A DNA stretch of 64,000 nucleotides from an uncultured Acidobacteriota bacterium (lineage in GTDB: Bacteria > Acidobacteriota > Thermoanaerobaculia > Multivoradales > UBA5704), in NCBI GenBank assembly GCA_963770895.1, contig CAVYRF010000001.1, positions 128,001 through 192,000 of the forward strand, in the 5' to 3' direction. Position numbers and translations under genes: made by a program. The notes under the pieces are model-generated. The model saw only the letters and a program-made list of their open reading frames with translations. It was not told the origin of the DNA and made no database searches. Below are positions 3,041 to 50,689 of this stretch, one piece after another (the stretch's first letter is position 1; every line of letters starts with the position of its first letter).

Positions 3041-3052
3041 CAGCATGGCCGG

Positions 3053-3448
3053 ATGGCATCGGACCTGATGATCCTGGCGCACGGCGGCACGTGGGAGATG
3101 CGGTTTCAGGTGTCGTCGCTCGCGGGCAGCGCGGCGGCGGCCGGCGACCACGTGCTGGTGGCGCTCTACTTCGCGGCGCTCGACGCGTGGGTGGGGGAGC
3201 GCTGGGATGCGCTGGACCCGGCGCCGCCGGTGTCGGCGACCCGGTTGCAGACGCTGGGTCTGCCGCCGCTGTCCGCCATGCTGGAGCCGGGGCGCGCGGC
3301 GGGCCTGATCCGGATCTATGCCTGCAGCGCGTCCTGCCGCGTGCTGGGGCTGGACATGGACAAGGCGCAGGCGTCCGTGGACGCGATCGTCGGCTGGCAG
3401 ACGTTTTCACGCATGACGGCCACGGCCGGCCGCGTGGTCAGCTTCTAG
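3053..3448 (+). CDS. DsrE/DsrF/DrsH-like small protein
   Basis: 131 aa with IYACSASC and VDAIVGWQTF motifs, typical of DsrE_2-like proteins. Confidence 0.6.
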   Translation: MASDLMILAHGGTWEMRFQVSSLAGSAAAAGDHVLVALYFAALDAWVGERWDALDPAPPVSATRLQTLGLPPLSAMLEPGRAAGLIRIYACSASCRVLGLDMDKAQASVDAIVGWQTFSRMTATAGRVVSF

Positions 3449-3505
3449 GCGTGCGCCGCGCGCCCCGGGCGCCGGCGGCCTGAGGCCGGACGTGGGCGGC
3501 GGCGG

Positions 3506-3880
3506 TCAGGTATCGCGCCGGATCAGGTAGGTCTCGGGGCCGACGACCTGGGGATCGAGCGAAAACTCGTAGAGCTGGAGGCCGCCGAACAGGGCGCGCA
3601 CCAGGGGGAAGCCGGCGGTCTGCAGCTTGCGGGCGAGGTCGACGGTGGTTGAGCCGTCATCGTCCAGCAGCACCACGTCCAGCTCGCGCGGCGGCTTCCA
3701 TTCGGGGCCGGGAAAGGCGCAGGCGCCCATCAGGGACAGACGGCCGGGTTCGGTGCGCACGTCGATCAGCAGCGGCGGGTCACCTTCTTTCAGGCGCCTG
3801 AAGACGGTGTAAGGGGGTACCTCCAGCAGCGGGTCGAACTGCACGACCGGAGTGCCTCTGGTGGTGTGGCGGGTGGGCAT
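3506..3880 (-). CDS. rhodanese-like domain protein
   Basis: LLIDVR...GA...L.TAGF..VRALFGGL pattern. The active-site loop has Asp rather than Cys. Confidence 0.7.
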   Translation of the reverse strand: MPTRHTTRGTPVVQFDPLLEVPPYTVFRRLKEGDPPLLIDVRTEPGRLSLMGACAFPGPEWKPPRELDVVLLDDDGSTTVDLARKLQTAGFPLVRALFGGLQLYEFSLDPQVVGPETYLIRRDT

Positions 3881-3895
3881 GCGTGAATCTCCTTC

Positions 3896-5218
3896 TCAGT
3901 CATACCCTTGTACGCGCGACTTGTGGTCGCTCCAGGCCAGGCCGGACATCGCCTTGGGCAGAAAGCGCGTGGATTTGGGCGGCAGCATCTGGCCGCGGGC
4001 GACGGCGGCGGCAAAGTCCGCCGGGCGCATGGGTGGCAGCCAGAAGCCGGTCCCCAGGTCTCCCGAGGCAACCTGCGCGTACAGGTCCTGCGGGTTGGAG
4101 CGGTAGACCAGGGTGCCGTCGGTTGCCGCCTCCGGCGCCAGGCCGAGGGCCGGCAGGACGGCGCTTTGAAAGACGTCGACGACCAGCTGGCCGGGTGCCG
4201 CGGCAAGGTGCCAGATCTCGGGCCGGCTGCCTACCACCCAGACGCCCAGGGCCGGCTGCGGCGCGGCGGCCACCGCGGCGGCCAGGCCGTCGCCGTCGAC
4301 GCCGCCGAAGGGCAGGGCGGCGGTGCGCAGGCCGGCCAGCCGCGCCAGGTCGATCGGCTGGCGCAGGGCGCGATGGATGGGGTCGATGGTCAGCTCCCGC
4401 GAGGCCAGGCTGGTCACCACCGCGAGCTTGGCGCCGGCGGCGCTGCCGGCGGCGGCATGGTGCGTTTCGGCAAAGCGCAGGCCGACCTTGTAGCGATGGT
4501 GGCCGTCGGCGATCGCCGCCGGCCGCGACGCCACGGCTTGCTGATAGAGCGCGATGCGTGCCGGGTCGGCGACCTGGAACAGCAGATGAGAGTTGCCGTC
4601 TTCGTCAAGGTAGCGGACGAGCGGCGCCGGCGCGGCGCCGTTGGCCCGGCCGCCCTCGGCGGCTGGGCCGTCGCCGACGTCCTGGGCCAGCAGCTCTTCG
4701 AGGCGGCCATCGTCTTCGGCCAGCAGCAGCGCCGGCTCGAGATCGACCCGCATGGCCTCGAGCAGCGCCGTGCGCTCGGCGAGCGGCTTGTCCAAGGTCT
4801 GCTCGTGGGGGCGGATGACCGTCGGCGGCGCGTATTCGACCAGCGCCAGCACGCCGAGCCGGCGGCCGCCGCCGACCAGCTCGACGATATAGGGATAGAG
4901 CGACGGCTGCGGGTCGCGGGCGACGATGCCGTCCCGCAGCCACGCTGCGTGGAGTTGGGCGGCATGCCGGTACGCGGTGTCGGCGGTGGCGGCGGGCGCC
5001 GGCGCCGGTGCGGGGGTCTGTGCCGCCCCCGCCCCCCCGGCACCCGCCGGCGCGGCCGGAGCCACCGGACGCGTGAGATGGGCGAACTGGTACGGCGACG
5101 CGGCCTGGAAGCGGTCCCGCGCCGCGTCGTTGATCTGGTCGTACGGGGGGGCCGCCAGGCGTCCGGGGTCGCCCGCTCGGTCGGTGTAGCGCAGCCCCTG
5201 GAAGGCGAGTAGGCGCAT
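3896..5218 (-). CDS. DUF1015 family protein
   Basis: Motifs APPYDQI, IRPHEQT, IADGHHRY and MLPPKSTRFLPK. Confidence 0.9.
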   Translation of the reverse strand: MRLLAFQGLRYTDRAGDPGRLAAPPYDQINDAARDRFQAASPYQFAHLTRPVAPAAPAGAGGAGAAQTPAPAPAPAATADTAYRHAAQLHAAWLRDGIVARDPQPSLYPYIVELVGGGRRLGVLALVEYAPPTVIRPHEQTLDKPLAERTALLEAMRVDLEPALLLAEDDGRLEELLAQDVGDGPAAEGGRANGAAPAPLVRYLDEDGNSHLLFQVADPARIALYQQAVASRPAAIADGHHRYKVGLRFAETHHAAAGSAAGAKLAVVTSLASRELTIDPIHRALRQPIDLARLAGLRTAALPFGGVDGDGLAAAVAAAPQPALGVWVVGSRPEIWHLAAAPGQLVVDVFQSAVLPALGLAPEAATDGTLVYRSNPQDLYAQVASGDLGTGFWLPPMRPADFAAAVARGQMLPPKSTRFLPKAMSGLAWSDHKSRVQGYD

Positions 5219-5380
5219 GCAGGATCCTTTTGCGGCGGTCGTGCGGTCGGGATGTCCCTCACGCAGAGTCGCCTCTTATTCTACAGATGCTATGACACTC
5301 GCGGACGCACAACGGGGGATAACCGGCCGCAACCGTCACAAAGGAGACGCAGATGGCGTGCCAGGGCGGGGCCTACCCCG

Positions 5381-6127
5381 TCAGATCAGCTGCCCCAGCC
5401 AGCTGGCCTTGCTCATCCGCCGCAGGATGGTCTGGACGTGGCGCCGGTAGGCGCGGCTGTCCGCGCCGGGATGCCATTCGCTGGGCAGCGGCAGGCTGGC
5501 CGCCAGAAGGGCGGCTTCGCGCTCGGACAGCGCCCGCGCGGACTTGCCGAAGTAGTGGCGCGCCGCCGCTTCGGCGCCGTAGATGCCGGGCCCCATCTCG
5601 ACGACGTTCAGATAGAGCTCCAGGATGCGGCGCTTGCTCAGGTGGGCCTCCAGCTGGCGCGTCAGGGCCGCCTCCTTCAGCTTGCGCAGCGGGTTGCGCG
5701 AGGACGACAGCCACAGGTTCTTGGCCAGCTGCTGGGTGATGGTCGAGGCGCCGCGCGGCAGGCGCTTCTCCTCCCAGGCGTCCTCGATAGCCGCCTTCAT
5801 CTCGACGGTTTCAAAGCCGTGGTGGGAGAAAAAGCCGATGTCTTCGCCGCACAGCACCGCTCGCTTGAGCGCCGGCGAGATCTGCGCGTAGTGCACCCAT
5901 CGCCACTGGATCGGCCGCGGCGGCCCGAACCAGCCGCCGTCGCGGTAGTGCTCGATGAACGCCGTCATGGTCGGCCGGCGGTGGGTGAGCTCCGCCACGT
6001 CCGGCCAGGTGCAGACCTCCCAGATGGCCCACGTGGCGGTCAGGACGAGCAGCGCGGCGAGCGACAGCAGCCAGCGGGAGCGCGTCAGGCGTCCCCAGCG
6101 CGGCGGCTCGTAAGGCGACGCGATCAT
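5381..6127 (-). CDS. mtgA: monofunctional peptidoglycan transglycosylase (GT51)
   Basis: ED..F..HHGF, RGASTITQQLAKNL, RKLKEA, KRRILELYLN and an N-terminal TM. The start is uncertain (6127 or 6142). Confidence 0.9.
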   Translation of the reverse strand: MIASPYEPPRWGRLTRSRWLLSLAALLVLTATWAIWEVCTWPDVAELTHRRPTMTAFIEHYRDGGWFGPPRPIQWRWVHYAQISPALKRAVLCGEDIGFFSHHGFETVEMKAAIEDAWEEKRLPRGASTITQQLAKNLWLSSSRNPLRKLKEAALTRQLEAHLSKRRILELYLNVVEMGPGIYGAEAAARHYFGKSARALSEREAALLAASLPLPSEWHPGADSRAYRRHVQTILRRMSKASWLGQLI

Positions 6128-6175
6128 GGCGGAGGGCGCCATTGTACAGCGGGGAGGCGGCTATACTGCGCGCCC

Positions 6176-7903
6176 ATGAGCCCCGCCTCGCGCATCGACA
6201 AGAGGCCGGTCGACCGTCCCGCCGGCAATCCGACGCTCGCCCGGTTCCTGCTCGACCAGCTGGTCGAGGCGGGCGTGAGCTCCATCTTCGGCATTCCCGG
6301 CGACTTCATCCTGCGCCTCTGCCAGCTGATCGACGAGGACCCGCGGCTGCGCCTGCGCACCCTGTCGCACGAGCCCGGCGTGGGCTTTGCCGCCAACGGC
6401 GCGGCGCGCGGCACCCAGGGCCTGGGCGTCGCCTGCGTCACCTACGGCGCCGGGGCGCTCAACATGGTCAACCCGATCGCCGCCGCCTACGCCGAAAAGA
6501 CGCCGGTGCTGGTGCTGACCGGCGGCCCCGGCGAGGACGAGCGCTCGCGCGGCATCCTGGTCCACCACCAGGTCAAGAGCTTCGAGTCGCAGCTGCGGGT
6601 GTTCCACGAGGTGACGCAGTACCAGGCGGTGCTCAACGACCCGCTGACCGCCGCCAGCCAGGTGCGCTACGCCATCGACGTCTGCCGCCTGTACTCGCTG
6701 CCGGTCTACCTGGAGGTGCCGCGCGACATGGTGGAGCGTGAGATCCAGGTCGGGCCGCCGGGCCAGCTCGCCGTGCCGACGCAGGCGGGAGCCGTGGCGG
6801 AGGCCGCCGCGGAGATCCTGCGCATGGTCGCCGCGGCGCGCCGCCCGGTCATGGTCGTGGGCGTCGAGGTCCATCGCCAGCGCCTGGCCCGCGACGTGGT
6901 GGCGCTCGCCGAGCACCTGGGGCTGAGCGTGGTGAGCACCTTCATGGGGCGCGGCAGCTTCCCCGACGACCATCCGCAATACGCCGGGGTCTACCTGGGG
7001 CCCGCCTCGCCCCCCGGCGTCCGCGAGCTGGTGGAGGGCTCCGACTGCCTGCTGATGCTGGGCGCCCTGGTGAGCGACACCAACATGGGCGTGCGCATCA
7101 CCGCCATCGACCCGCGCGCCATCGTCCTGGCCGTCTCCCGCCAGGTCGAGATCGGCTACCACGTCTATCACGACGTGCCGCTCGACGCGCTGGTGGCGCG
7201 ACTGGTCGCCGATCCCGGCGGCCGGCGGCGCTCCGACTTCGTGCCGAGCGGCGGCCGCCGCCCGTTCATGCGCGCCGACGACGCCGCCTCGCCCGGACCG
7301 CTGCGCGTCGCCGCCCTGGTCGCCGAGATCAACCGCTTCTTTGCCGAGCACGGCGCGATGCCGCTGGTCGCCGACACCGGCGACTGCCTGTTCTGCTCGC
7401 ACGAGATCGACACCCAGCTGGTGCTGGCGTCCGCCTACTACGCCACCATGGGCTTCGCCGTGCCCGCCGCCCTGGGCTTTGAAAGCGCCACCGGCAAGCG
7501 CCCCCTGGTCCTGGTCGGCGACGGCGGCTTCCAGATGACGGGCAACGAGCTGCTGCATGCCGCGCCGCAGGGCCTGCGCCCGATCGTCGTGGTGATGAAC
7601 AACGGTTCGTGGGAGATGCTGCAGTCCTTCCTGCCCAGCAACTACAACCAGATCCCCGATTGGCACTACGCCAGCGTCGCCCGCCTGTGGGGGTGCGCCA
7701 GCTGGAAGGTCAAGACCGCCGCCGCCCTGCGCGCCGCCCTGGCCGCCGCCTTGACCGAGCCCCGCCCGGTCCTCATCGAAGCCCTGCTCGCCAAGGGCGA
7801 CATCTCCGACACCCTGTACACCTTCACGCGCAGCGTCGGCACCACCCCGCCGCCGCCCACGGCAACGCCTCCTGCCGCGGCGTCGCCGATGCGGGGCAGG
7901 TAA
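6176..7903 (+). CDS. ipdC: indolepyruvate/phenylpyruvate decarboxylase (ThDP-dependent)
   Basis: FGIPGDF, LSHEPGVGFAA, VHHQ and the GDGGFQMTG...NNGSW ThDP motif. Start placed at ATG 6176, 8 nt after TATACT. Confidence 0.85.
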   Translation: MSPASRIDKRPVDRPAGNPTLARFLLDQLVEAGVSSIFGIPGDFILRLCQLIDEDPRLRLRTLSHEPGVGFAANGAARGTQGLGVACVTYGAGALNMVNPIAAAYAEKTPVLVLTGGPGEDERSRGILVHHQVKSFESQLRVFHEVTQYQAVLNDPLTAASQVRYAIDVCRLYSLPVYLEVPRDMVEREIQVGPPGQLAVPTQAGAVAEAAAEILRMVAAARRPVMVVGVEVHRQRLARDVVALAEHLGLSVVSTFMGRGSFPDDHPQYAGVYLGPASPPGVRELVEGSDCLLMLGALVSDTNMGVRITAIDPRAIVLAVSRQVEIGYHVYHDVPLDALVARLVADPGGRRRSDFVPSGGRRPFMRADDAASPGPLRVAALVAEINRFFAEHGAMPLVADTGDCLFCSHEIDTQLVLASAYYATMGFAVPAALGFESATGKRPLVLVGDGGFQMTGNELLHAAPQGLRPIVVVMNNGSWEMLQSFLPSNYNQIPDWHYASVARLWGCASWKVKTAAALRAALAAALTEPRPVLIEALLAKGDISDTLYTFTRSVGTTPPPPTATPPAAASPMRGR

Positions 7904-7996
7904 GCGCCGGGAGCGCCCTGGCAACGGCGGGGCGTACACCGTGGGTGCCGCCCCGCCGGTGGCGTCGCCCTCAGCAGGGCGCTCCGGCCTTTGGCA

Positions 7997-8191
7997 CTAG
8001 CAGTACCTGGATTTGCAGGTGGTCAGGGTGTCGCAGTCCAGGCAGGAGGTGACACCACAGACGCTGTTTTCACAGACGGTCGTGTTCGAAGGTGTCGCCC
8101 CACCCATCGCCTGCCCGAGGGCCGGCTTGTCGAGATAGCGCAACGTCTCGCTGTTGAGGCGCAGCTTCTTCGGATTGGCGCTGGTCCGCAT
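7997..8191 (-). CDS. RiPP (lanthipeptide-like) precursor peptide, 64 aa
   Basis: RBS GAGGAG. Leader MRTSANPKKLRLNSETLRYLDKPALGQAMGG and core ATPSNTTVCENSVCGVTSCLDCDTLTTCKSRYC (6 Cys, 11 Ser/Thr). Confidence 0.8.
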   Translation of the reverse strand: MRTSANPKKLRLNSETLRYLDKPALGQAMGGATPSNTTVCENSVCGVTSCLDCDTLTTCKSRYC

Positions 8192-8322
8192 CGAATTCTC
8201 CTCTTCGATCAAGATTGTCCGGAAGTTGACTCAGGACGTTCCCGAGTGCGAGGAGCGAGGCTATCAAGTTTTCCGCGGAGTTTCAGCTCACTCGCAAGTA
8301 TACTAATAGGCCCTATCCGTGT

Positions 8323-10869
8323 TCACTTTCCGCGTGTGGGGTGCGGCGTGCAGGGGCCGTAGGCAGCCATGCGGTCGTTGACGAAGAGCAGGGGCAGGCC
8401 GCCGGCGGTCAGGGCGGCGCGGCTTTCGGGGTCGTCGGCCCAGGCGACGAAGACCAGCGGTTTGTCGCAGGCGGCCAGGGCGGTGGGCCACCAGGCGAAG
8501 GGGCGCAGCGGCGTCTGCCGCGGGTCGGCGGTCATCCACTTGTGCAGGTAGGCCAGGACGTAGTTGCTGGTCAGCTCGCGGCCGCGCGGGCTGGCGACCA
8601 GCACGGTGCGGTGCAGGTAGAAGGGGAGCGAGGGTGGAAAGGCGCGCACTCCCACCACGTCGGCGCCCGGCGGCAGCGCCGGCAGGATCGCCGCCGCCGC
8701 GTCGCGCGCGGAGCGGCGGCCGGCGATCTCGCCCAGCAGCGGCAGCGCCAGCGCCGGCATGATCGCGATGGGCAGCAGGAGGCCGAGCAGCAGCGCCGGC
8801 CGGGCGATGCGGCTGGCGCGGCCGTCCCACGGCAGGATGCCGCCGCGGCGGTGCCCCCAGGCGGTCACGGCGGCGCCGATCAGGAAGGCGACGGCCACCG
8901 CGGTCAGGGTCGCCGGCAGCCGCGTCGCGCGCGCCAGCGCCGCGGGATGGGCGACCATGCCGTAAGCGGCGGCAGCGGCGCAGAGAACTCCCAAGGCGAG
9001 CCAGGTCCATGCCACCGCGGCGGCTCCCGGCAGCGACCTCCATGGTGCCGCCCGCCAGTCGCCTGCGGCCAGCTCGCCTGAAGGGACGGCTGCGCCGGCG
9101 CCGGCCGGACCGGCGAGCTCGTGGGAGACGCTGGCGGATCGGTTTGTCACGGCGCCTTTCCGTGGGTCCGTGCCGGTGGCAGCCTGGGGACTGGTGCGTC
9201 GCGTGGCGTCGCCGTTGCCTGGTTGGTCCACGGCGGCGGCTTCGGCGTCCACCCAGACCTTGGCGGCGAGGATGGCGACGGCGGGCAGGAGCGGCAGGAT
9301 GTATTGCGGCCGCTTGGAGTGCGACAGCGAGAACATCACCAGCGGCACGGCGATCCATAGAAGAAGGTAGAGGAGCGCCGGGTTCCAGCCCCGGCCGGGG
9401 CCGCCGCGCGGGCGCAGGCTGCGCCGCCAGCCGGCCAGGACCAGCACCGACCAGGGGAGGGTGCCGGCGATGAGGCAGGGGATGTAGAGCCAGATCGGAC
9501 CTTCGCGGTTCATCTGGGTGGTGGTCACCCGCGCCCACGTTTCGGTGACCAGGGCGTAGTGCAGGAACTCCGGCACCTGGCGCGACACCAGCCAGACCCA
9601 GGGGCCGACCACCAGCGCCAGCACCGCCACCCCGGCCGGATGCCATACGGCGCGTGCCGCCCGCCGCATGAAACCGTAGGGGGCGGCCGCCAGCAGCGGC
9701 ACCGCGAGCGCCACCGGCCCCTTGGCCAGCACCCCCAGCCCGATCGCCGCCCAGGCCAGGAGCGTCCATCCCAGGTAGCCGCGATGACCGCCCGGCGGCA
9801 GCGGCGCCGCCGGCGTGCCCGCGGTGCCGCCGGCGGTGTCCGTGCGGCCCTCGACCCTGGCGACGATCGCGCCGGCGGCGGCCTCGCTGCGCTCGGCCGG
9901 ACCGTTGGTATCGCGGCGCCCGCTGGCTGCATCGCTCTCGCGGCGGCCGGCCGCGGCGGCGGCCCGCGCCTCGACCGCCATGTAGAACGCGCACAGCGCC
10001 AGGGTCAGGCAGAACGCCAGCAGGCTGTCGAAGATGACGGCGCGCGCAAAGGCGAGGGGCAGCGGCGCCACCAGCGCCGCCAGCGCGGCGATCGGGCGCG
10101 CCCGCGGACCGAACAGGCGGCCGGCGAACCAGGCGGCGAGCGCCGCAGTGGCCAGAGCGGCCAGCAGCGACGGCAGGCGCGCGGCGGCCTCGGTGACCCC
10201 GAACAGACGCTGCGACGCCGCGTCCAGGGCAAAGAAAAGCACCGGTTTGTCGAGGTAGGGGAGCCCGTCCAGGTGGGGCAGCGCATAGTCGCCGCCGGCC
10301 ATCATCTCCCTGCCGACCTCGCCGTTGCGCCCCTCGTCGGGGTCGAGCAGGGGATAGGCGCCCAGCCCCCAGGCGAGCACGACGATCAGCGCAACCCACG
10401 GCAGGATGCAGCGCACCCGCGCCATCCAGCCGGGCTGGCGATCGTGCCGATCAGCCTGGATACCGCGCGGTGGCAGCGCGCTGCCGCCGGTGTCCTGCGG
10501 GAGGTCTCTTGCGCTCAGCACTTCGCTTGCTCCCGCGTTGCCGGCGTGCCGCCGCCGGTGCCCTGCGGCCGTTCCCGTTCGCTCAACACTTTGGTTTGCT
10601 CCCGCGTCGCGGCGTCGCGGCGTCGCAGCGTGGCCGCTTCGCCGCCGCCAGCGCTTCGTCGCCCGTCTGCGCCATCCGCCACCCGTCCCTATGCGCCGCT
10701 CGCCGGTATCCGAAGAGCCCGCCCCGCCTGGGCGCGCCGCGCAATCTACGCCAAACCCCGCCGGATGACCACCCAGGAGGGGCACCGCCTCCGGCGGCAG
10801 CGCGCTGCCTGGGGACTGACGGGGCATTGGCACTCGTTGGTAGTGGACAAGCGATGGGGTATCTGGCAT
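8323..10869 (-). CDS. ArnT/PMT-like glycosyltransferase (GT39/GT83) with low-complexity insertions
   Basis: LLDPDEGRNGEVGREM, YLDKPVLF, ARLPS, LAKGPV and SKRPQYILPLLP motifs. Start at 10869 (RBS GGGAG) or at 10425. Confidence 0.85.
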   Translation of the reverse strand: MPDTPSLVHYQRVPMPRQSPGSALPPEAVPLLGGHPAGFGVDCAARPGGAGSSDTGERRIGTGGGWRRRATKRWRRRSGHAATPRRRDAGANQSVERTGTAAGHRRRHAGNAGASEVLSARDLPQDTGGSALPPRGIQADRHDRQPGWMARVRCILPWVALIVVLAWGLGAYPLLDPDEGRNGEVGREMMAGGDYALPHLDGLPYLDKPVLFFALDAASQRLFGVTEAAARLPSLLAALATAALAAWFAGRLFGPRARPIAALAALVAPLPLAFARAVIFDSLLAFCLTLALCAFYMAVEARAAAAAGRRESDAASGRRDTNGPAERSEAAAGAIVARVEGRTDTAGGTAGTPAAPLPPGGHRGYLGWTLLAWAAIGLGVLAKGPVALAVPLLAAAPYGFMRRAARAVWHPAGVAVLALVVGPWVWLVSRQVPEFLHYALVTETWARVTTTQMNREGPIWLYIPCLIAGTLPWSVLVLAGWRRSLRPRGGPGRGWNPALLYLLLWIAVPLVMFSLSHSKRPQYILPLLPAVAILAAKVWVDAEAAAVDQPGNGDATRRTSPQAATGTDPRKGAVTNRSASVSHELAGPAGAGAAVPSGELAAGDWRAAPWRSLPGAAAVAWTWLALGVLCAAAAAYGMVAHPAALARATRLPATLTAVAVAFLIGAAVTAWGHRRGGILPWDGRASRIARPALLLGLLLPIAIMPALALPLLGEIAGRRSARDAAAAILPALPPGADVVGVRAFPPSLPFYLHRTVLVASPRGRELTSNYVLAYLHKWMTADPRQTPLRPFAWWPTALAACDKPLVFVAWADDPESRAALTAGGLPLLFVNDRMAAYGPCTPHPTRGK

Positions 10870-41726: not shown

Positions 41727-44402
41727 TCAGGCGACCGGCAGCGGGGCCAGGGCGGCGATGACGTCGCCGGTCGTGGCGCAGCGGTCTTCGGGGCGCTTGG
41801 CCAGGAGCTTGTCGATCACCAGGTCGCTCCACGCCTGCGGCAGGCCGGGGCGCAGCGACAGCAGGCTGGGCGGCGGCTGCTGCAGGTGCTGGATGGCGAT
41901 CGCCGTCGAGTTGGCGCCGTCGAACGGTTCGCGGCCGGCAAGCAGGGCGAAGGCCAGGACGCCCAGCGAGTAGATGTCGGAGCGGCCGTCGATGGCCAGG
42001 CCCTGGATCTGCTCGGGCGACATGTAGAGCGGCGAGCCCAAGGCGAAGCCGGCCTGCGTCAGCCGCTTGTTCTCGAAACCGCTCATGCGGGCGATGCCGA
42101 AGTCCAGGATCTTGAGCCGCGTCGCGGTCAGGATGACGTTTTCGGGCTTGAGGTCGCGGTGCACCACTCCCAGGGCGTGGGCTTCCCCCAGGCCCGACGC
42201 GATTTCCGTCAGGATGGTCTTGATGCGGTCCAGGGGCAGCCGCCGGTCGGGGTCGATCAGGTCGGCCAGGACCTCGCCTTCGAGCAGCTCCATGATGATG
42301 AAGATCCATTCGCCGTGGCGGCCCAGGTCGAACACGCGCACCACGTTGGGGTGGGTGATCTTGCGGCAGATCTGCACTTCGCGCAGCAGCCGCTCGACGT
42401 CCACCGAGCCGTCTTCGTGGTGGCTGAGCAGCATCTTGATCGCCACCGGTTCGCCCAGCTCGATGTCCTGCGCCTTGTAGACCCTGCCCATGCCTCCCTG
42501 GCCCAGCTCGGCCAGGATCTGGAAGCGGCCGGCGAGCATCTGGCCGACGCTCAGGGTGCCGATGGGGCGGCCGGGGCCGCGCGGCCGCGATGGACGGGCG
42601 TCCGCGCCCGCGGCGCCGGCGGCTTCACCGGCGCCGGTGCCGCCGGCCGGGATGGCACCGGTCTGGCCACCGGCGGCATCGGCGGCCGTCACCTGCCGCG
42701 ACCGCGACGCCCCCGGCGGTGCCACCGAACGCACGTCCAGCTCGTCGCTGGCGAACAGGCCGGTCGCATGGGTCGGCGGCGGGTCCACCGCACCGGGCCT
42801 TGTCCCGGCTCCAGGCCTCGCCGCGGTGCCGGCGCCGAGCGCGGCGCCATCGAAGGCGACCGCCATCGTCGGCGCCGCCGCGGTCGGCCGCGCCGTCAGG
42901 CCCGGCATGGGCGGAAACGGCGTGACGCGGGTCGCCGCCGTGTCGGGTTCCTGGCGCCGCCGCACGGTGGCCAGGCGCTCGGCCGCGTCCTGGTATTGGA
43001 TCGACGGGTCCGCCAGCTCCTTGAAGCAGGCCGCCGCGTGATCGAGCTTGCCCAGCTGCTCGTAGGAGCGCCCCAGCAGGTAGAGGCGTTCGCAGGCGAC
43101 CTGGAAGCGCTCGCCGCTGCGCGCGTGCACCAGCGTCGAGGGCCGCGCCTGGGGCAGCTGGCCGAGCCGGCGCAGCGCCTCTTCGGCCTTGCCCTCCGCC
43201 AGCAGCAGCGGCGCCAGCTGCAGCATCGCCGCTTCATGCTCGGCGCTGCCGGCGGCGACCTGCATGAGCGCCTGGGCGGCCTTGCCGCGCTCGCCCGCCG
43301 CCAGCAGCTGCGTCGCGGCGGCGACGCGCTGCTTCGCCTTGAGGTATTGGTCGGCGGCGGCGAGCGGGTCGCCCGCCTTGGCGTAGGCCGCTGCCGCAAG
43401 CGCATGCTTGCCCAAGGCGGCGTAACAGCGGCCGGCGTCGCGTGGGCGTGAGGCGCGCAGGTAGGCTTCGGCGGCGCGCTCGTGCTCCTGCGCCGTTTCC
43501 CAGCGCGACCCGGCCTTGGCCCAGTCGCCGCCGGCCTCGTAGGCCTCCGCCGCTTCGCGCGCCAGCCCCGCCGCGGCAAACACGTTGCCGGCTTCCACCG
43601 CGTGGCCGCTGCGCAGATAGATCTGGGCGGCCAGCCGGCGATCGATGTTGGGGGAGCGTTGCAGCAGCCGCACCGCCGCCTCGGTGTCGCCCATCTGCAG
43701 CGCCGCTTCGATCGCCTCGCGGTACTTGCCGCTGTCGGCGAGCAGGCGCACCCCCTGCGTCGTCGGCCGCACGTCGCGCAGCAGCGCCGCGGCTTCGGCC
43801 TCCTTGCCGAGCTTGCGCAACACTTCGGCGCGGCGCAGGCCGATGCGCGCCAGCTGCTCCTGGTTGGCCGCCGGCGGGCGGCCTGGCTCACCCTGGCCGG
43901 ACAGGCGCCTGGCTTCCAGCTCGAGCACGCGCAGGGCGTCGTCGAGCAGCTCGGCGTTCTCGTACTGCTGGGCGGCTTCCCACAGCGCCCTGCCGCGTTC
44001 GAACAGCCGGCCGGCGCGGGCGGCCTGGCCCAACGCCAGGGCGCTGGCCGCCGCCCGCCGGAAGGCGTGCGCCAGCTCGAAGAGGCCGATCGCTTCGTCG
44101 TGGTGGCCGCGCGCCACCAGGTACTCCGCCGCCGGCACCGCCCGCAGCGGCCCGCCGCCGGCGGTCAGCTCGGGCGGCACGGTGCCGAACACCGCCTTGA
44201 GCGCGCACTCCACCGCCAGGCGCTCGTCGCCCGCTTCGACCGCCAGGCGCGCCGCCTTGCGCAGGTCGCCCGCCAGCGCATACATCTCGGCGGCCTTTTG
44301 CGTCCTGCCTTCGCGTTGATAGATCTCGGCCCGCTGCCGGGGATCACGCTTGAGCTTCGCGGCGAATCCAGGCTTAGGGGGCTTCAGAACCATGCCGACC
44401 AC
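41727..44402 (-). CDS. Hanks-type Ser/Thr protein kinase with N-terminal TPR/alpha-solenoid repeats
   Basis: LGQGGMGRVY, VAIK, HRDLKPEN, DFG and YMSPEQ. Repeated AA..Y..AG helices precede the kinase. Confidence 0.92.
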   Translation of the reverse strand: MVGMVLKPPKPGFAAKLKRDPRQRAEIYQREGRTQKAAEMYALAGDLRKAARLAVEAGDERLAVECALKAVFGTVPPELTAGGGPLRAVPAAEYLVARGHHDEAIGLFELAHAFRRAAASALALGQAARAGRLFERGRALWEAAQQYENAELLDDALRVLELEARRLSGQGEPGRPPAANQEQLARIGLRRAEVLRKLGKEAEAAALLRDVRPTTQGVRLLADSGKYREAIEAALQMGDTEAAVRLLQRSPNIDRRLAAQIYLRSGHAVEAGNVFAAAGLAREAAEAYEAGGDWAKAGSRWETAQEHERAAEAYLRASRPRDAGRCYAALGKHALAAAAYAKAGDPLAAADQYLKAKQRVAAATQLLAAGERGKAAQALMQVAAGSAEHEAAMLQLAPLLLAEGKAEEALRRLGQLPQARPSTLVHARSGERFQVACERLYLLGRSYEQLGKLDHAAACFKELADPSIQYQDAAERLATVRRRQEPDTAATRVTPFPPMPGLTARPTAAAPTMAVAFDGAALGAGTAARPGAGTRPGAVDPPPTHATGLFASDELDVRSVAPPGASRSRQVTAADAAGGQTGAIPAGGTGAGEAAGAAGADARPSRPRGPGRPIGTLSVGQMLAGRFQILAELGQGGMGRVYKAQDIELGEPVAIKMLLSHHEDGSVDVERLLREVQICRKITHPNVVRVFDLGRHGEWIFIIMELLEGEVLADLIDPDRRLPLDRIKTILTEIASGLGEAHALGVVHRDLKPENVILTATRLKILDFGIARMSGFENKRLTQAGFALGSPLYMSPEQIQGLAIDGRSDIYSLGVLAFALLAGREPFDGANSTAIAIQHLQQPPPSLLSLRPGLPQAWSDLVIDKLLAKRPEDRCATTGDVIAALAPLPVA

Positions 44403-44641
44403 GTTCTCCGGGGCCGATGTCGCTGCCGAAACGTCGAACTTGCAGTATAGAGCATATGTTCACGTGCAAAAAGCGCTCTGCATCGCAGCCCCGGGGCAAA
44501 AAAGTAGCATAGCACCGAGCCCTCTCCGCCGCGTGCCGCCCAGCCAACACCAGGCGCCGGCCATTCAGACATACATATATACGCGAGCGGCGAGCCGTTG
44601 GCGGACCGGGCGGGGGGGCGGCAACGGCCCGGCGGATGCTA

Positions 44642-45743
44642 TTGATACCTGCGTAACAAATGTCCTATACTCTGGGCAGGAGGATAGCCATGCGTCCTCA
44701 AGGAAGCCCAGAGGAGTTGGAACGGCGGCGCAAGCGGGCTGTAGAGCTTCTCCGTGAGGGGTTGCCGCCGGTTGAAGTGGCCCGGATGGTGGGTGTCGAT
44801 AGAAGGAGCGTTCGGCGGTGGAAGGCGGCGCATCAGCAGAGCGGAGCGATGGGCTTGCGGGCCAAGCCTGTTCCGGGACGCCCGAGTCGACTTCCGCAGG
44901 CGGCCAAGGCTGCGCTGGAAGAGTTGCTGCTCCAGGGCGCCGCGGCCGCAGGGTATCCAACGGACCTGTGGACATGCCCACGGGTCGCAGACGTGATCTT
45001 CTCCCGGTTTGGGGTGCATTATCACGCTGATCATGTCGGCCGGCTGCTGCACAGTCTCGGCTGGAGCCCGCAGAAGCCTCAGCGACGCGCCGTCGAACGC
45101 GATGAGGAGAAGATTCAGACATGGATTAAGCAGGAGTGGCCCCGCATTAAAAAAAAGCTTGGCGCCTGAATGCAACGCTGGTTTTTATCGACGAGAGCGG
45201 TTTCTTGATGGCTCCGTGGGTCCGTCGGAGCTGGTCGCGCCACGGCCAAACGCCGGTACTGGTGCAGCGGACGCGCTCTCATCAAAAGGTCTCGGCCATC
45301 GCCGCTCTCTGCATCTCGCCGAGCCGCGACGAGCTGTCGTTGTTCTTCCGACTGCATCCAGATCGAAATATTTGCATCCCCGAGATCGTGGAGTTTCTCC
45401 GCGGCCTTGCTCGCCACTTACAGGGCCGGGCGGTAGTGATTTGGGATCGCCTCCAAGCTCACCGCAGCAAGCGGGTTGACGAGGTTCTTCGGCAAAGCCA
45501 GGGGTCGCGAGCGTCCTTTCTGCCTCCGTACGCCCCCGACCTCAACCCCGTCGAATGTGTCTGGTCGTATTTGAAGACCGGCGCTATTGCCAACCTCGCG
45601 CCAACTCAACTCGACGTACTCACCGCCGCCGCGCGTCACGGTCACCGCAGCCTTCAGCGGAATCAGCCTCTGCTTCGATCCTTCCTGGCGCACAGTCCGC
45701 TTTTTTTGCGCCTCAACTAGGACATTGGTTATGCATGTATCAA
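44642..45743 (+). mobile_element. IS630-family insertion sequence, about 1.1 kb
   Basis: Terminal inverted repeats TTGATACCTGCGTAACAAATGTCCTA and TAGGACATTGGTTATGCATGTATCAA (3 mismatches), flanked by duplicated TA in a CTAG target. Confidence 0.93.
44690..45720 (+). CDS. IS630 transposase (orfA HTH + orfB DDE joined by a -1 frameshift)
   Basis: HTH/winged-helix orfA; A8 run at 45149-45156. The -1 frame continues KKAWRLNATLVFIDESG...IWDRL...LPPYAPDLNPVE. Confidence 0.9.
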
Positions 45744-45759
45744 TAGTAGGCCCCGCCGC

Positions 45760-47007
45760 TCACGAAAGGCGCACCGCTGCAGCATGGTCTTTGAGCAGGG
45801 GGACCCGACGCCAGTGCCGAAACAGGGCGTCAGCGTGCTCGCTAGGCATGACATCCCTGCCGGTCGAGAGGCGCCATGCGGTGGTGATTCGGGACAGCGC
45901 CTCACGCACGGTCTCGATCGTTTGTCCGGCGTCTGCCTGTGCATGCGCCGCCAGCCGCGCAAAGGTTTTCTCGCTCACCTGCGCAGGATCGCGACTACCG
46001 AGGAGGGACAGCGCCAGATCGGCGCGCACTTCGGGCCATGCTACGGTGCATACCTGGTCGTAGAGCGGTGAGAGCTCAGCTGTGATGCCGTCGGGGTAGA
46101 CCAGGGACCAATTCTTCAAATGGGCATCATTGTTGCCACTGGCGATGATGAAGACCAGCCGACGGACAAATTCGAGGTATGCTTCCTGGCCGGCGATATT
46201 CTTGATCAAGAGCGCACACTGTTGGTATTTAATGTTGTCGTACTTTGCCTCTGGCGGCGTGTTGACGGCTTGTGCCAAATCTTCCTGGTGAATGCGTTGC
46301 TGGCCCTGCCGGTCATAACGCCTAATCAAGAGAACGTGACCACCGGTAGGCGCGTGCACCTGAAGTTCACGGGACAGCGCCGACCGCGGCAGTATGTGGC
46401 ATTCAGGTACTTCGAAGCCTGCAGCACGTGCCCATTCGAGCATGGCATACTCGTTCTCCACCACCTGTGCAAAGGTCGAAGAGTCTAGCTTGGCAATCCA
46501 TTCTCCTCCGTGCCCATGGACCGGGAGCGTAAGCTTGTCATGCTGCCTCAGCACTGAGAACTTGAGCTGTACTCCAGCGAGAGAGAAGCGAAGCCCCCCA
46601 TCGGCCGACCCTGCGGTAAACCGTGTTACTCCGTTCGAGGCCCCATCATCAGTGCCTTCCTCGATCTCCTCAAGGTTCTCTGACGCAGAGCGGATCTCGA
46701 CCGCACCTGGAAGATCCCGGCCCACCGCGGCAAGCAGGGCTATGTCGTCGCCTTGGGGAAGACTTGCATCGCTCTCGATCAGGGCGCGTAAGGGGCCTTC
46801 GGGTACCAGGTTCGCGAAGAACGCCGGAAGACCTCGCTTTCTACGATAGACCTTGCTGAGGTCGTCCTCAAACGATTGGCTAAGGACGGGGCGCCTGGTT
46901 CGGCGCCGGTACTCGTCTGTCAGCCGGAAAGATACCTTCCCGTCATCATTCTCCAAGAGATAGCCAGCACGAAGACCCTGGAGAAGAACCTCGAGGCTGC
47001 GGCTCAT
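45760..47007 (-). CDS. HipA-family Ser/Thr kinase (N-terminal coupling domain + kinase)
   Basis: FFANLVPEG, RFSLAGVQLK (Gly loop), RYDR, HQEDLAQA, NNDAHLKNWS and LSPLYD. Confidence 0.92.
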   Translation of the reverse strand: MSRSLEVLLQGLRAGYLLENDDGKVSFRLTDEYRRRTRRPVLSQSFEDDLSKVYRRKRGLPAFFANLVPEGPLRALIESDASLPQGDDIALLAAVGRDLPGAVEIRSASENLEEIEEGTDDGASNGVTRFTAGSADGGLRFSLAGVQLKFSVLRQHDKLTLPVHGHGGEWIAKLDSSTFAQVVENEYAMLEWARAAGFEVPECHILPRSALSRELQVHAPTGGHVLLIRRYDRQGQQRIHQEDLAQAVNTPPEAKYDNIKYQQCALLIKNIAGQEAYLEFVRRLVFIIASGNNDAHLKNWSLVYPDGITAELSPLYDQVCTVAWPEVRADLALSLLGSRDPAQVSEKTFARLAAHAQADAGQTIETVREALSRITTAWRLSTGRDVMPSEHADALFRHWRRVPLLKDHAAAVRLS

Positions 47008-48635
47008 ATGTCGTCTGCCTGCGACAGCAGATATTCAATTGAAGGCCGGTCAGTTCGCGACCAGCCCGCAAGGCGCTCGGCCATGCGATCGACCGCTTCT
47101 TCGATTGACCTCTTCCGTTCATATAAGAATGAGCGCGTATCTCGTTCTCGGAGAGCTACCACGCCGGCCGACGAAATAGCGTGGGACGAGAAAACTGGCA
47201 AGATTTCGCCGGCCTGTGCCGCAAATTCCAACAGGTCCCTGGCTGCGCCGCTAGCCCCCGGCAGCAGGATTCGATTTGCCGGGGTACGGGCAAGCGGGTC
47301 CCCGGGCGCGAAGATCCTGCGGAATGCCGCCACACCTCTGGTTTCGATCATAGCGGCGACATCAAGCTGCGTACCATCCAGGAAACGGCGGGGCGCGAGC
47401 GATGCCATTCCCAAGAAAGCCACCCTGCTGTCGGCCGCACGCGCGTCGGTACGCTCAGGAAGATGGTATCGCCTGAGCGGTTGTTTAGGGACCAGCGCGA
47501 GCAGGTTTTGCACGCTGGGCTCCTCTTGATTCTCCTCGATTGCTGTAACTCCGTGCCGGAGGAACCTACGCTCGTCGAAAGCTTCGACTGCCAGCAATAG
47601 GCGCCAAACGAAACGAACGAGGAGATCTCGGGTCCGGGGCCTCGGTTCCGGATGGAGTGCGAAGAAGCGGGTCAGGATCATCAGCGGCAGCGATCGTGGC
47701 AGAAGGAGCAAGTGAGGGATCTCTGCCGCTTGGCGCAAAAAGGAGAGAACGTTACGCAGGGCAGGCAGGGCGTCGCTGACGACTCCTTTGAGCATCGTTG
47801 GATCTTTGCGATACAGTTCGGTCAAGGTACGTGTGACGTCAAGGCCCTTCCAGGCTATCAGGCAGCGGAGGAGCTGTTCTTCCTCCGGCCGTCCCATTCC
47901 CATCTCGCGCAGTTCGTCTGCCAAGCTGGCCAACGTCGAGGGATGCTCGCCGACGTGACCGAAAAGGGCGTCGTGGACATCCTGCCACTGCATGCTCTTA
48001 CCGTATTTATTGATACGGAAGAAAATCTCCCGCAGAAGCTGTTCGTCATCGGTCTCGACAATGTACAAAGGTATGCGATATTGACGGATCAAGCTTCCTG
48101 CCCGAAAAACTGCTGCGCGCAGCGTTACATCGTTTGCGTGGCGCCATTGAAAAACCCATTCGCTGAGCGAGGACGCGTCGAGCAACTGTGCTGCCGGCAC
48201 CCACTCGGATGGTACGTTGCCATTTTTTTGCGGTGAGGCAAATTTTTGGTTTGCGGCGTCGAAATAGACCACCCAAGGATCGTCAGGTGAAGGCGAGATC
48301 GGTTGAGGATGAGCCAGTCCGGCGGCGAGCGCGGTCAGGCGCTGCTGGCCGTCTACCACCCAGAGAGCTGAGTGAGTTTCTGGAGCGTCGATCCGCAACG
48401 GTCCAATGGCAATTCTAGCCGCGTCGGCATGTCCCTTCCTAAGCAGGAAAGAGCCGATCGGATAGCCCTGATAGATGCTGTCGAAAAGAGCGACGATATC
48501 GTCTGCCGCCCACCTCAGCGGTCGTTGGAAGCTGGGAATTCTCACGCCCCCCCGGCGCACCATATCGACCAAGTCCTCGACTGTCTCGGTGTCGGCCTCC
48601 GGGCGTAGATTCAACCTATGGGGCTCGGGGTCCAT
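47004..48635 (-). CDS. DUF262 (GmrSD N-terminal, ParB/Srx-like) domain protein
   Basis: IPSFQR...W, DSIYQGYPIGSFLL, VVDGQQRLTAL and IFFRIN..G motifs. Stop overlaps the HipA start (ATGA). Confidence 0.88.
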   Translation of the reverse strand: MDPEPHRLNLRPEADTETVEDLVDMVRRGGVRIPSFQRPLRWAADDIVALFDSIYQGYPIGSFLLRKGHADAARIAIGPLRIDAPETHSALWVVDGQQRLTALAAGLAHPQPISPSPDDPWVVYFDAANQKFASPQKNGNVPSEWVPAAQLLDASSLSEWVFQWRHANDVTLRAAVFRAGSLIRQYRIPLYIVETDDEQLLREIFFRINKYGKSMQWQDVHDALFGHVGEHPSTLASLADELREMGMGRPEEEQLLRCLIAWKGLDVTRTLTELYRKDPTMLKGVVSDALPALRNVLSFLRQAAEIPHLLLLPRSLPLMILTRFFALHPEPRPRTRDLLVRFVWRLLLAVEAFDERRFLRHGVTAIEENQEEPSVQNLLALVPKQPLRRYHLPERTDARAADSRVAFLGMASLAPRRFLDGTQLDVAAMIETRGVAAFRRIFAPGDPLARTPANRILLPGASGAARDLLEFAAQAGEILPVFSSHAISSAGVVALRERDTRSFLYERKRSIEEAVDRMAERLAGWSRTDRPSIEYLLSQADDI

Positions 48636-48843
48636 CCTCGGATTATCTCACTACTGGATCTCCCTTAGCCTGTGGCTATGGATCCGACGCGGTGGGGCCA
48701 CAGAGGGACGTCACATGAGGGAAGCCACGGCTCTTGTCCCACCCCAACGGTGGTATTATGGATGGGTCGGGGGGCCCCACGCTGCTGGATCCTGCGCCTT
48801 GGATTCCGGGCGGCAAGCAGGGGGCCCAAAAGGACGACGCACC

Positions 48844-49776
48844 ATGTACACCTTGCGGACGTTGGCTGCGATGGCGGTGCTCTCTTGGGGGTTGGGGGCC
48901 GTGGTTCCGGCTCCTCTCCGTGCCGACGATGTGTATCTGAAGAACGGCCGATCCTTCACCGGCGTGGTGGCCGAAGTGGGGGAGACGCAGGTGCGCATTG
49001 AGATGCCGGGCGGCAGCCTGAGCTTGCCGCTGTCGGCCGTCGACCGGGTGGAAAAGTCGGGCTCGACGTTTGGCGGCTTCCTGCAGCGCAAGCAGGAGCT
49101 GCTGGCCGCCGAAGCGCACGCGCGTGGCGAGCGGCATGCGACCGACTGGCTGGACCTGGCGCGTTGGGCCAAGCGCAACGGCTTCACCCAGGGGGCGCGC
49201 GAAGCGGCGCTGGTCGCGGCGGAGATCGACCCTCACGTGGACGGGCTGGCGCCGATCCTGGTCCCCATGGGCTACGTGTTCGCCCAGAAGCAGGACCGCT
49301 GGGTCTCGTTCGAGGAATCGATGCGCATGCAGGGCTTCGTCCAGGACGGCAACGGCCAATGGGTGAGCCGTGAGCAGTACGCCGCCGAGCAGGCCGCCAG
49401 CCGGCAGGCGTGGCTGGCGCAGCAGCAGGCCGCCACGGCGGCGGCGGCGCAGGCCGGGGATGAGGTGGCCTACCAGGCGGCGATCGCCCAGCAGGCTGCA
49501 GGCGACTTCTCCAACAGCAACGCCTATCCCGGCGACGCCTGGCCGATTTTGTACGGCGGCGGCATCGCCGTGCCCGGCTACGGCGCGTACGGCTACGGCC
49601 GCTACGCTCGCCGCGGCCAGGCGTTCGGCGCCGCGCGCATCGGCCCGCCGTTCCGCCAGCCGGGGAGCCTGCCGGTCGGCCATCCTCGCGCCGGCCACTT
49701 TGGCGGTGGCGGCGCGCACGGTGGCGGCGGCCACTTTGCCGGCGGCGGCGGCCACGCGGGCGGGGTGCGCCGTTAG
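48844..49776 (+). CDS. secreted hypothetical protein with Gly-rich C-terminus
   Basis: Signal peptide, then ADDVYLKNGRSFTG. Good GC3 codon pattern and a GGGHF repeat tail. Confidence 0.7.
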   Translation: MYTLRTLAAMAVLSWGLGAVVPAPLRADDVYLKNGRSFTGVVAEVGETQVRIEMPGGSLSLPLSAVDRVEKSGSTFGGFLQRKQELLAAEAHARGERHATDWLDLARWAKRNGFTQGAREAALVAAEIDPHVDGLAPILVPMGYVFAQKQDRWVSFEESMRMQGFVQDGNGQWVSREQYAAEQAASRQAWLAQQQAATAAAAQAGDEVAYQAAIAQQAAGDFSNSNAYPGDAWPILYGGGIAVPGYGAYGYGRYARRGQAFGAARIGPPFRQPGSLPVGHPRAGHFGGGGAHGGGGHFAGGGGHAGGVRR

Positions 49777-49870
49777 CGGCGCCAGCGGCTCTTCCAGCTC
49801 GCCGACTCGTGGCGCCACAGCTTCCGTTCCAACTCTTCGCCAGACTCGCGGCCGGCGGCATCAGCATCGG

Positions 49871-50689
49871 ATGAGCTGGGCGATCGAGGTCACCGACCTG
49901 CGCAAGTCGTACCCGGGCGGGGTCACGGCCCTGGCCGGGGTGTCGTTTGCGGTGTCTCCCGGCGAAGTGTTTGCCCTGCTGGGCCCGAACGGCGCCGGCA
50001 AGTCCACGACGGTGCGCATCCTGACGACGCTGGCCGCGCCCAGCGCGGGGCGGGCGGCGATCGACGGCATCGACGTCGCGGCGCAACCGCGCGAGGTGCG
50101 CCGGCGCATCGGTTGCGTGGCGCAGGCTTCGGGCGTCGACGGCACGGCGACGGGCCGCCAGAACCTGCAGCTGCAGGGACGGCTCCACCGCCTGCCGGCG
50201 GCGGAGCTGGCGGCGCGTGTCGACGAGCTGCTGCATCGCTTCGACCTGGCCGCGGCCGCCGATCGCCCGGCGGGTGGCTGGTCGGGCGGCATGAAGCGCC
50301 GCCTGGACATCGCGATGGGGCTGGTGCACCGGCCGTCGGTGCTGTTCCTGGACGAGCCGACGGCGGGGCTCGATCCGGCGAGCCGGGCGGTGCTGTGGGA
50401 GGAGGTGCGCAACCTGGCGCGCGGCGGCATGACGCTGCTGCTGACCACCCACTACCTTGAGGAAGCGGACCAGCTGGCCCAGCGCCTGGCGATCCTGGAC
50501 GCGGGGCGGGTGGTGGCGCTGGGCACCCCGGCCGAGCTCAAGGCGCGCCTGGTCGAGTCCGCAGTGGGAGGCGCCGGCGGCGCTGCCGGCACTGCCAGCG
50601 CTGCCGGCAAGGGGGGCCGCCAGCCGACGCTCGACGAGGTGTTCCTGGCGGCCACCGGCCACGCCTTCCAGGCGAACAAGGTCCAGTAA
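49871..50689 (+). CDS. ABC exporter ATP-binding protein (DrrA-like)
   Basis: GPNGAGKST, SGGMKRRL, LDEPTAGLDP and TTHYLEEAD. Confidence 0.92.
   Translation: MSWAIEVTDLRKSYPGGVTALAGVSFAVSPGEVFALLGPNGAGKSTTVRILTTLAAPSAGRAAIDGIDVAAQPREVRRRIGCVAQASGVDGTATGRQNLQLQGRLHRLPAAELAARVDELLHRFDLAAAADRPAGGWSGGMKRRLDIAMGLVHRPSVLFLDEPTAGLDPASRAVLWEEVRNLARGGMTLLLTTHYLEEADQLAQRLAILDAGRVVALGTPAELKARLVESAVGGAGGAAGTASAAGKGGRQPTLDEVFLAATGHAFQANKVQ

Follow-up and report, generated by a model that had tools for sequence, protein, structure and literature searches.

HipA kinases serve as a reference model in the study of persistence and of toxin-antitoxin biology, and a connection with phage defence has recently emerged. 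In hipBA of Escherichia coli K-12, the gene for the partner HipB, a helix-turn-helix (HTH) protein of the Xre type, comes first and that for the kinase HipA second, the two overlapping at their stop and start codons. The locus described here lies in a 64,000-nucleotide stretch of DNA (the window) from an uncultured Acidobacteriota bacterium (GenBank assembly GCA_963770895.1, contig CAVYRF010000001.1, positions 128,001 to 192,000), and resembles hipBA in the order of its genes, in their overlapping stop and start and in encoding a full-length HipA with Couple_hipA and intact catalytic motifs. It differs in that the window has no HTH (Xre-type) HipB, the upstream gene encoding instead a GmrSD-like protein of 543 residues (hereafter the DUF262 protein). 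We lean towards reading the locus as a self-contained, horizontally mobile two-gene module, in which this GmrSD/BrxU-like protein, apparently dead at its HNH site, would sit in HipB's place and control an intact HipA.

DS-6/HipAD is a validated anti-phage pair that combines a HipA-like kinase with a DUF3037/DUF1829 protein, and its defence needed kinase activity, as the DefensePredictor paper describes it (PMC13092281). By that description HipAD shares with our pair a HipA-family kinase and a large partner other than HipB, and is set apart by the partner itself, which in the window carries GmrSD_N only, without DUF3037 or DUF1829. By analogy, HipAD would be the closest functional precedent; its primary paper is reportedly that of Brenes and Laub 2025. 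Among the ten Hip gene organisations laid out in the main text of Gerdes et al. 2021 (PMC8262856), none has a GmrSD-like partner, and 'DUF' and 'GmrSD' each occur there 0 times.

On the partner's side, the GmrSD-family type IV enzymes (BrxU, HEC-06, SspE) have the same overall architecture and fold as the DUF262 protein and share DGQQR and a BrxU-like xLFDS segment. The Payne 2024 preprint reports that DGQQR and the HNH motif (DHIYP in BrxU, EHICP in HEC-06) are each required for defence. A second point of comparison is ptuXYZ, outlined by Gerdes 2025 (PMC11980606) as a DUF262 protein lacking DUF1524, a PtuA-like ATPase and a PIN-BECR RNase. As outlined there, this proposed defence operon resembles our locus in joining a DUF262 protein without a working HNH to a toxin-type effector; it differs in its three genes, its RNase effector, its ATPase and a PtuX described as shorter, whereas the window has two genes, a putative kinase effector and a retained, degenerate C-domain.

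In PADLOC v2 the DUF262 protein of the window matches the candidate profile PDC-M55C with 190.5 bits over profile positions 8-537 of 554, while its HipA matches PDC-M03A only, weakly (24 bits), and no PDC-M55 model. A three-gene PDC-M55A/B/C operon is found at positions 2663-6662 of a locus on the Paracoccus yeei plasmid pYEE5 (L108), encoding an ATP-binding cassette (ABC)-type ATPase (M55A, 262 bits), a protein of unknown type (M55B, 112 bits) and a DUF262 protein (M55C, 417 bits); it adjoins a resolvase and a RelE/ParE-CopG pair, and it reveals the make-up of this unnamed PADLOC candidate. The DUF262 component of PDC-M55 is a full-length relative of the window protein, but M55A and M55B are both absent from the window, and the C-like protein there scores 190 bits against 417 for a true member. 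Judged by these profile matches, the DUF262-HipA module is a sister of PDC-M55, not a member. No paper describing the pair was found in full-text searches, which left subscription journals largely outside, and PADLOC v2 offers no named match; the pair looks undescribed as a toxin-antitoxin or phage-defence module, as an earlier note on this DNA, written from the letters alone, had supposed.

Gene order and distribution of the pair

The gene for the DUF262 protein, an open reading frame (ORF) carrying Pfam GmrSD_N, occupies 47004..48635 on the minus strand, and its start at 48635 is backed by homologues, conserved from about residue 10. It is followed on the same strand by an ORF for a full-length HipA-family Ser/Thr kinase of 415 residues with HipA_C and Couple_hipA (45760..47007). 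The two genes share the ATGA at 47004..47007 (minus strand), where the sequence reads ...GAC ATA TGA at the stop and ATG AGC at the start; both ORFs and their overlap, to which the earlier note had drawn attention, were confirmed. Such an overlap points to translational coupling, the DUF262 protein and HipA probably being co-translated.

From a species-representative genome collection we obtained 349 stretches encoding DUF262 relatives, of which the best 80 were taken as loci. A word-indexed search returned 703 DUF262 matches at E <= 0.001 among 8000 scored candidates, the 120 listed being 52-72% identical, and the proteins form a well-defined family of about 545 residues. When 1.84 billion cluster representatives were searched with a profile, 1540 DUF262 matches were obtained at E <= 1e-30; the best 150 profile matches all have a single-domain architecture and measure about 390-595 residues.

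A HipA homologue lies directly downstream on the same strand in 76 of the 80 best loci (tblastn), which bears out the conserved adjacency that the earlier note had proposed to look for. Three of the four loci without a HipA match (L038, L066 and L067) reach a contig edge, and the fourth (L030) is a decayed copy, in which a DUF262 ORF with internal gaps (5950-7710) runs into a remnant of about 20 residues of the HipA Gly-rich loop. With this decayed copy included, effectively 77 of 77 testable loci have HipA; in single-gene GmrSD/BrxU systems the protein stands alone, whereas in the window family it never does. The remainder of HipA is gone from L030, and recX-like and alaS-like genes follow. 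In three further loci (L011, L014 and L035) the HipA ORF is shortened (342 and 309 residues) or split in two with the upstream DUF262 gene intact, damage that may represent toxin inactivation or assembly error.

With ORFs taken mechanically from the first start, the gap between the two genes is -4 to +4 in 51 of the 76 loci. In the remaining 25 this rule puts the HipA start in the wrong place, and homology sets in within 41 nt of the stop, the exceptions being L019 (68 nt) and L035 (224 nt, a split gene). Clustering of flanking ORFs of at least 80 residues gave DUF262 and HipA as the largest clusters (80 and 76 loci), followed by one of 71 loci made up of ORFs that overlie the two genes out of frame or on the opposite strand. 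No third conserved gene was found across the 80 loci, where the flanking-ORF clusters reach at most 11 loci and come mainly from Myxococcus-type records with shared synteny. The module consists of two genes only.

Record titles name 12 phyla for the loci, namely Acidobacteriota, Cyanobacteriota, Myxococcota, Pseudomonadota, Bacteroidota, Rhodothermota, Gemmatimonadota, Planctomycetota, Actinomycetota, Thermomicrobiota, Ignavibacteriota and Eremiobacterota, a few labels of metagenome-assembled genomes looking doubtful. The HipA of a locus labelled Rhizobium (L013) is near-identical to cyanobacterial copies, that of a locus labelled Comamonas (L042) falls among Myxococcus copies and that of one labelled Stygiobacter (L068) among Azospirillum copies; these conflicts reflect either recent transfer or mis-binned or mislabelled records. 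One copy of the pair is carried by a conjugative Azospirillum plasmid, beside a resolvase and type IV secretion system (T4SS) genes, where RefSeq annotates separately a 'DUF262 domain-containing protein' and a 'type II toxin-antitoxin system HipA family toxin'. The genome of the window itself has a second, divergent pair on another contig (L086, contig C2 of G000, 7035-10144, minus strand), the DUF262 protein and HipA of which are 36% and 44% identical to those in the window.

The DUF262 protein and its kinase partner

The DUF262 domain (GmrSD_N, PF03235; E 5.9e-23, Pfam) covers residues 19-220 of the protein (47976..48581, minus strand) and includes FQR at residues 36-38, LFDS at 50-53 and DGQQR at 95-99 (48339-48353, minus strand, coordinates checked). 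The structural model suggests a ParB/Srx-type N-domain, a helical linker and a degenerate DUF1524-like C-domain. Motif conservation, both here and for HipA, was counted over 29 aligned family members. All 29 DUF262 members carry GmrSD_N (Pfam), and Q37, R38, D52, S53, D95, G96, Q97 and R99 are invariant among them; FQR and DGQQR are each kept in 28 of 29, the remaining member reading DGQHR for the latter, and the residue preceding D52 is F in 17 of 29, otherwise L, I, V or Y. The NCBIfam model DGQHR gives the window protein 19.5 bits, below its cut-off of 58.85, and supplies no family-level name.

The C-terminal half departs from the type IV enzymes at their catalytic motif. At the site of the GmrSD-type [D/E]-H-I-x-P HNH motif the window protein has RRIFAP (residues 439-444; 47304..47321, minus strand), with the acid-His dyad replaced by Arg-Arg and a beta-strand at 438-440 in the AlphaFold2 model. 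In the subclade to which the window protein belongs, this strand has the sequence (A)F-R-R-I-x-P; it varies across the remaining family, where, as in the subclade, no member has a His in columns 436-445 (0/29); the [D/E]-H dyad present in BrxU and HEC-06 is missing from 29 of 29. Pfam places no family over the C-terminal region in any of the 29 members (E <= 1), and its winged-helix-like 'Dimerisation' matches five of them weakly. Because there is neither an HNH His nor a C-terminal Pfam family, the DUF262 protein is best regarded as a GmrSD-like scaffold probably devoid of the canonical nuclease centre. The earlier note had come to a similar view: the strings it quoted from the C-terminus (RRIFAP, ANRILL and FLYER) are present as given, and the loss of the HNH-like His that it proposed extends to the whole aligned family, in which the nucleotide-site motifs of DUF262 are kept. 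Elsewhere in this region 27 of 29 members retain a Ser-His pair (S484-H485), and the ANRxxHP motif (columns 453-458) has its His solely in the more distant half of the family.

The AlphaFold2 model of the DUF262 protein has a mean predicted local distance difference test (pLDDT) score of 84.7, and in structure it is closest to BrxU, a type IV restriction enzyme of the GmrSD family (Foldseek E 3.7e-11). Superposition on BrxU (7p9k) with VIA-align gave a Z of 15.8 over 457 residues, 12-528 on chain residues 1-583, with a root-mean-square deviation of 17.3 that is this large because domain orientation differs. Despite the lost HNH motif, the C-terminal region overlays the BrxU fold up to residue 528. 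Further VIA-align matches were the SspE C-terminal domain (Z 8.9, 278 aligned), DndI (Z 8.6) and ParB N-domains (Z about 4.7). Beyond most of the overlay lies a C-terminal tail (residues 517-543; 47007..47087, minus strand) with the pattern W..DRPSIxYLL and an acidic end, which is predicted to be a HipA-binding element. Its D529 is invariant in the 29 members, and R521 (90%), R530 (86%), P531 (90%) and S532 (83%) are well kept; this family-specific DRPS tail, if it does bind HipA as modelled, is a further difference from GmrSD and BrxU.

The downstream kinase matches HipA_C (E 1.2e-48; 166.1 bits against a gathering cut-off of 30.5) and, over residues 5-105, Couple_hipA (E 2.2e-20; 73.4 bits against 22.5) in Pfam, and the NCBIfam couple_hipA model gives it 60 bits against a cut-off of 27.8. 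The family profile of HipA matches chains of the E. coli protein over 5-388. With both an N-subdomain and a kinase core, this kinase is a HipA of full length and not a HipT. Its Gly-rich loop SLAGVQLK (46561-46584), its catalytic loop DAHLKN, of the form D-x-H-x-K-N (46111-46128), and its Mg-binding D317, the Asp of PLYDQV (46057-46059), all read from the translation of the minus strand, align with the solved HipT chains 7ab3-7ab5, and these catalytic motifs are invariant in 29 of 29 aligned members. It follows from this invariance that the kinase is under selection, and the HipA of the window is probably catalytically intact, in agreement with the earlier note, which had called it full length with its motifs preserved.

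HipB, kinase ancestry and the predicted complex

HipB was sought by tblastn with eight HipB queries from hipBA loci, and 19 hipBA-type loci served as controls. No match was found in the whole window, where the earlier note had seen no hipB gene on either side of the pair, nor at the second pair, nor in 79 of the 80 related loci, the single exception being the long-branch outlier L078; in 17 of the 19 control loci the queries found another locus's HipB. A HipA match at E <= 1e-20 was obtained in 17 of 401 same-phylum genomes, that of the window counted. Six non-self matches with 36-40% identity (L088-L093) each have a gene for an HTH protein of about 100 residues directly upstream, and none of these hipBA loci has a DUF262 gene.

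In a maximum-likelihood tree of 85 kinases, the 75 that are linked to DUF262 form one clade with the six hipBA kinases of L088-L093, with 100% support in the Shimodaira-Hasegawa-like approximate likelihood ratio test (SH-aLRT); four more distant hipBA kinases provide the contrast, and the backbone inside the clade is unresolved. Holding the DUF262-linked kinases together costs 2.04 log-likelihood units (approximately unbiased test, p 0.44), a result by which their single origin is not rejected, though also not proven. The closest kin of this HipA are hipBA kinases, and the DUF262 protein therefore sits in the HipB position. On this comparison of loci, HipB would seem to have been replaced by the DUF262 protein and not merely to be missing.

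The two proteins have diverged together. Over 29 paired loci the pairwise distances of the DUF262 protein and HipA correlate with r 0.93, a value reached in 0 of 2000 permutations, although the shared history of a linked pair would also yield it. Modelling of the DUF262-HipA complex, likewise suggested in the earlier note, gave interaction scores derived from predicted aligned errors (ipSAE) of 0.85, 0.86 and 0.85, against 0.01 for the best control. In calibration, 58 of 80 solved complexes attained this ipSAE mark, as did 2 of 110 mismatched pairs. Contacts agree between runs to at least 86%, and partner pLDDT is at least 80. On the DUF262 side the modelled interface comprises residues 517, 520-521, 526-528, 530-534, 536-537 and 539-542 of the tail together with 332-337, and on the HipA side residues 35-52, 247-271, 308-310 and 355-357, with R39, Q44, E47, D48 and D49 of HipA kept in at least 76% of members. 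Sequence searches of the PDB returned BrxU-type DUF262 chains and HipA, HipT and HipS chains, with no entry holding both, so that the score is unlikely to stem from a solved complex already known to the predictor. The modelling supports direct binding of the DUF262 protein to HipA.

Genomic setting and possible roles

Both genes lie in a low-GC (guanine-cytosine) stretch of about 4.5 kb: in 500-nt windows the GC fraction is 0.55-0.65 across 44250-48999, compared with 0.69-0.80 on either flank, as the earlier note had perceived. The second pair of this genome is also in a lower-GC islet (0.58-0.67 vs 0.70-0.80). Adjoining the low-GC pair is the IS630-family element that the earlier note had seen beside it; it spans 44630-45755, its ends being 38-nt terminal inverted repeats at 44630-44667 and 45718-45755. 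Its transposase is encoded in two ORFs identified by Pfam scan, one for the HTH (44660-45169) and one for DDE_3 (45205-45720), an arrangement that suggests a frameshift. The HipA stop codon is 5 bp from the edge of the inverted repeat (45755) and 40 bases from the DDE_3 ORF (45720). Because a second IS630-family copy, 91% identical, occurs elsewhere in the genome (contig C1), we treat the element as a neighbour and not as part of the module.

Upstream, the region between the DUF262 gene and a divergent host gene (48636..48843, minus strand) is the presumed operon promoter from its position only, and a sigma-70 consensus scan of this region gave no minus-strand site upstream of 48635. The sequencing runs returned for 45760-48760, nine in number from 4 studies, are of DNA or of unknown type, none of them an RNA run. 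To the left of the island, 41727-44402 (minus strand) encodes an 891-residue host protein with N-terminal repeats resembling tetratricopeptide repeats and a C-terminal Hanks-type Ser/Thr kinase domain, HRDLKPEN and DFG being visible in the translation. It belongs to a kinase family with many paralogues, giving 20 matches in G266 and 9 in G365, two genomes of the same taxonomic family. In both, the orthologues of the flanks (this kinase and the ABC ATPase at 49850-50689) are on separate contigs.

The module that we favour might work as follows. The DUF262 protein would keep its ParB/Srx-type nucleotide site, the HNH catalytic dyad having been lost, and its W..DRPSI..LL tail, helped by residues around R334, would clamp the N-subdomain (35-52) and a core surface (247-271) of HipA. 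In the resting cell the complex most likely keeps HipA inactive, the DUF262 protein acting as antitoxin, while the DUF262 domain and dead-nuclease body most likely form a sensor dependent on nucleoside triphosphate (NTP), on DNA or on both. HipA would be freed by some cue, for example DNA that is invading or modified, an imbalance of nucleotides or the loss of its partner, and may then phosphorylate a translation factor and stop growth, with abortive infection or post-segregational killing as the outcome. Other HipA kinases phosphorylate aminoacyl-tRNA synthetases, stopping growth. We infer the inhibition of HipA, the nature of the trigger, the target of the kinase and the role in phage defence, as well as the assignment of sensor or antitoxin to the DUF262 protein and of effector to HipA. 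HipA is taken to be the harmful component on three grounds: it is most closely related to hipBA toxins, its catalytic motifs do not vary, and in degraded loci the partner is retained while HipA is lost.

More tentatively, a type IV restriction-enzyme lineage that has lost its nuclease may have been re-used as the sensor and gatekeeper of the kinase toxin HipA. Its ParB/Srx-type NTP site and dead HNH region would report on the nucleotide state or on DNA that is foreign or modified, and the tail-held HipA would then be released to shut down translation. This specific version is possible but less probable than the general proposal of a DUF262 protein that controls HipA.

Several results weigh against the proposal. 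First, the complex was modelled 1:1 with custom alignments, which makes the calibration counts only a rough guide. Second, the predicted interface is not more conserved than the remainder of either protein: on average the window residue is shared by a fraction of members of 0.42 in the interface vs 0.45 outside it for the DUF262 protein (one-sided Mann-Whitney p 0.68) and 0.36 vs 0.46 for HipA (p 0.93). Third, as modelled, the interface appears to leave the active site without obvious cover, in which case inhibition would lack a structural explanation. Fourth, no fused DUF262-HipA protein was seen among proteins of 952-2715 residues, which is weak evidence, or among the best 150 of 13,713 profile matches. 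Lastly, the neighbourhoods say little of defence. In a sample of 20 of 39 loci chosen from the 80, in which 78 of 153 near-neighbour ORFs were compared with PADLOC at E <= 1e-8, four loci have a defence-like neighbour within about 2.2 kb, a count that for want of a baseline speaks neither for nor against enrichment; no phage-borne copy was found in 50,697 phage records, and the plasmid copy beside resolvase and T4SS genes fits plain addiction equally well. Defence is a plausible role for which the neighbourhoods give weak evidence, and the module may serve against phages, in the upkeep of plasmids or islands, or in both.

The alternative that fares best is plain addiction by post-segregational killing, in which the DUF262 protein would be a labile antitoxin, perhaps an autoregulator, without any sensing of phage or foreign DNA. 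We give it some credence, though we think it rather doubtful. Besides the conjugative plasmid copy and the scarcity of defence genes nearby, it can draw on the placement of both pairs of the window's genome in low-GC islets, one of them beside an insertion sequence, and on the decay of HipA first in degraded copies. Set against this, 543 residues and conserved NTP-site motifs far exceed what binding as an antitoxin needs, the sister family PDC-M55C sits in an ATPase-containing defence candidate, and a HipA kinase with a non-HipB partner has already been validated in defence, by the account given in PMC13092281.

A reversal of roles, with the DUF262 protein as effector (an NTPase or a ParB/Srx-domain nuclease) and HipA as a regulator that switches it by phosphorylation, strikes us as unlikely. 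ParB/Srx-type DUF262 domains have been proposed as both NTPases and nucleases, according to Machnicka 2015, the NTP-site motifs are strictly kept here, and the conserved S484-H485 could, speculatively, be a phospho-acceptor. However, the HNH dyad that BrxU and HEC-06 are reported to need for defence is absent from every aligned member, the kinase is a complete HipA most closely related to hipBA toxins, and it is HipA, not its partner, that degraded loci lose, as expected if HipA is the harmful one. That the genes are functionally unrelated and adjacent by chance or local synteny has nothing beyond the separate RefSeq annotations in its favour and is effectively refuted by the same order, strand and coupling at the great majority of loci from the named phyla with differing flanks, by the co-divergence and by a binding model that passes its controls; the pairing is not chance.

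For our preferred reading, that of a HipA under the control of a GmrSD/BrxU-like protein, the interest lies in how HipA is governed without HipB, of which this pair offers a widespread and compact case, with two genes in about 2.9 kb. The controller here would be recognisably derived from a restriction enzyme and have its nucleotide site intact. GmrSD-like proteins would then have been reused as non-nucleolytic partners, of HipA in this family and of an ABC-type ATPase in PDC-M55. Current Hip classifications and PADLOC v2 lack the organisation that this family would add, and, if the DUF262 protein does act as sensor and gatekeeper, the family would provide a direct link from the sensing of DNA modification to abortive infection and an eleventh organisation of Hip modules.

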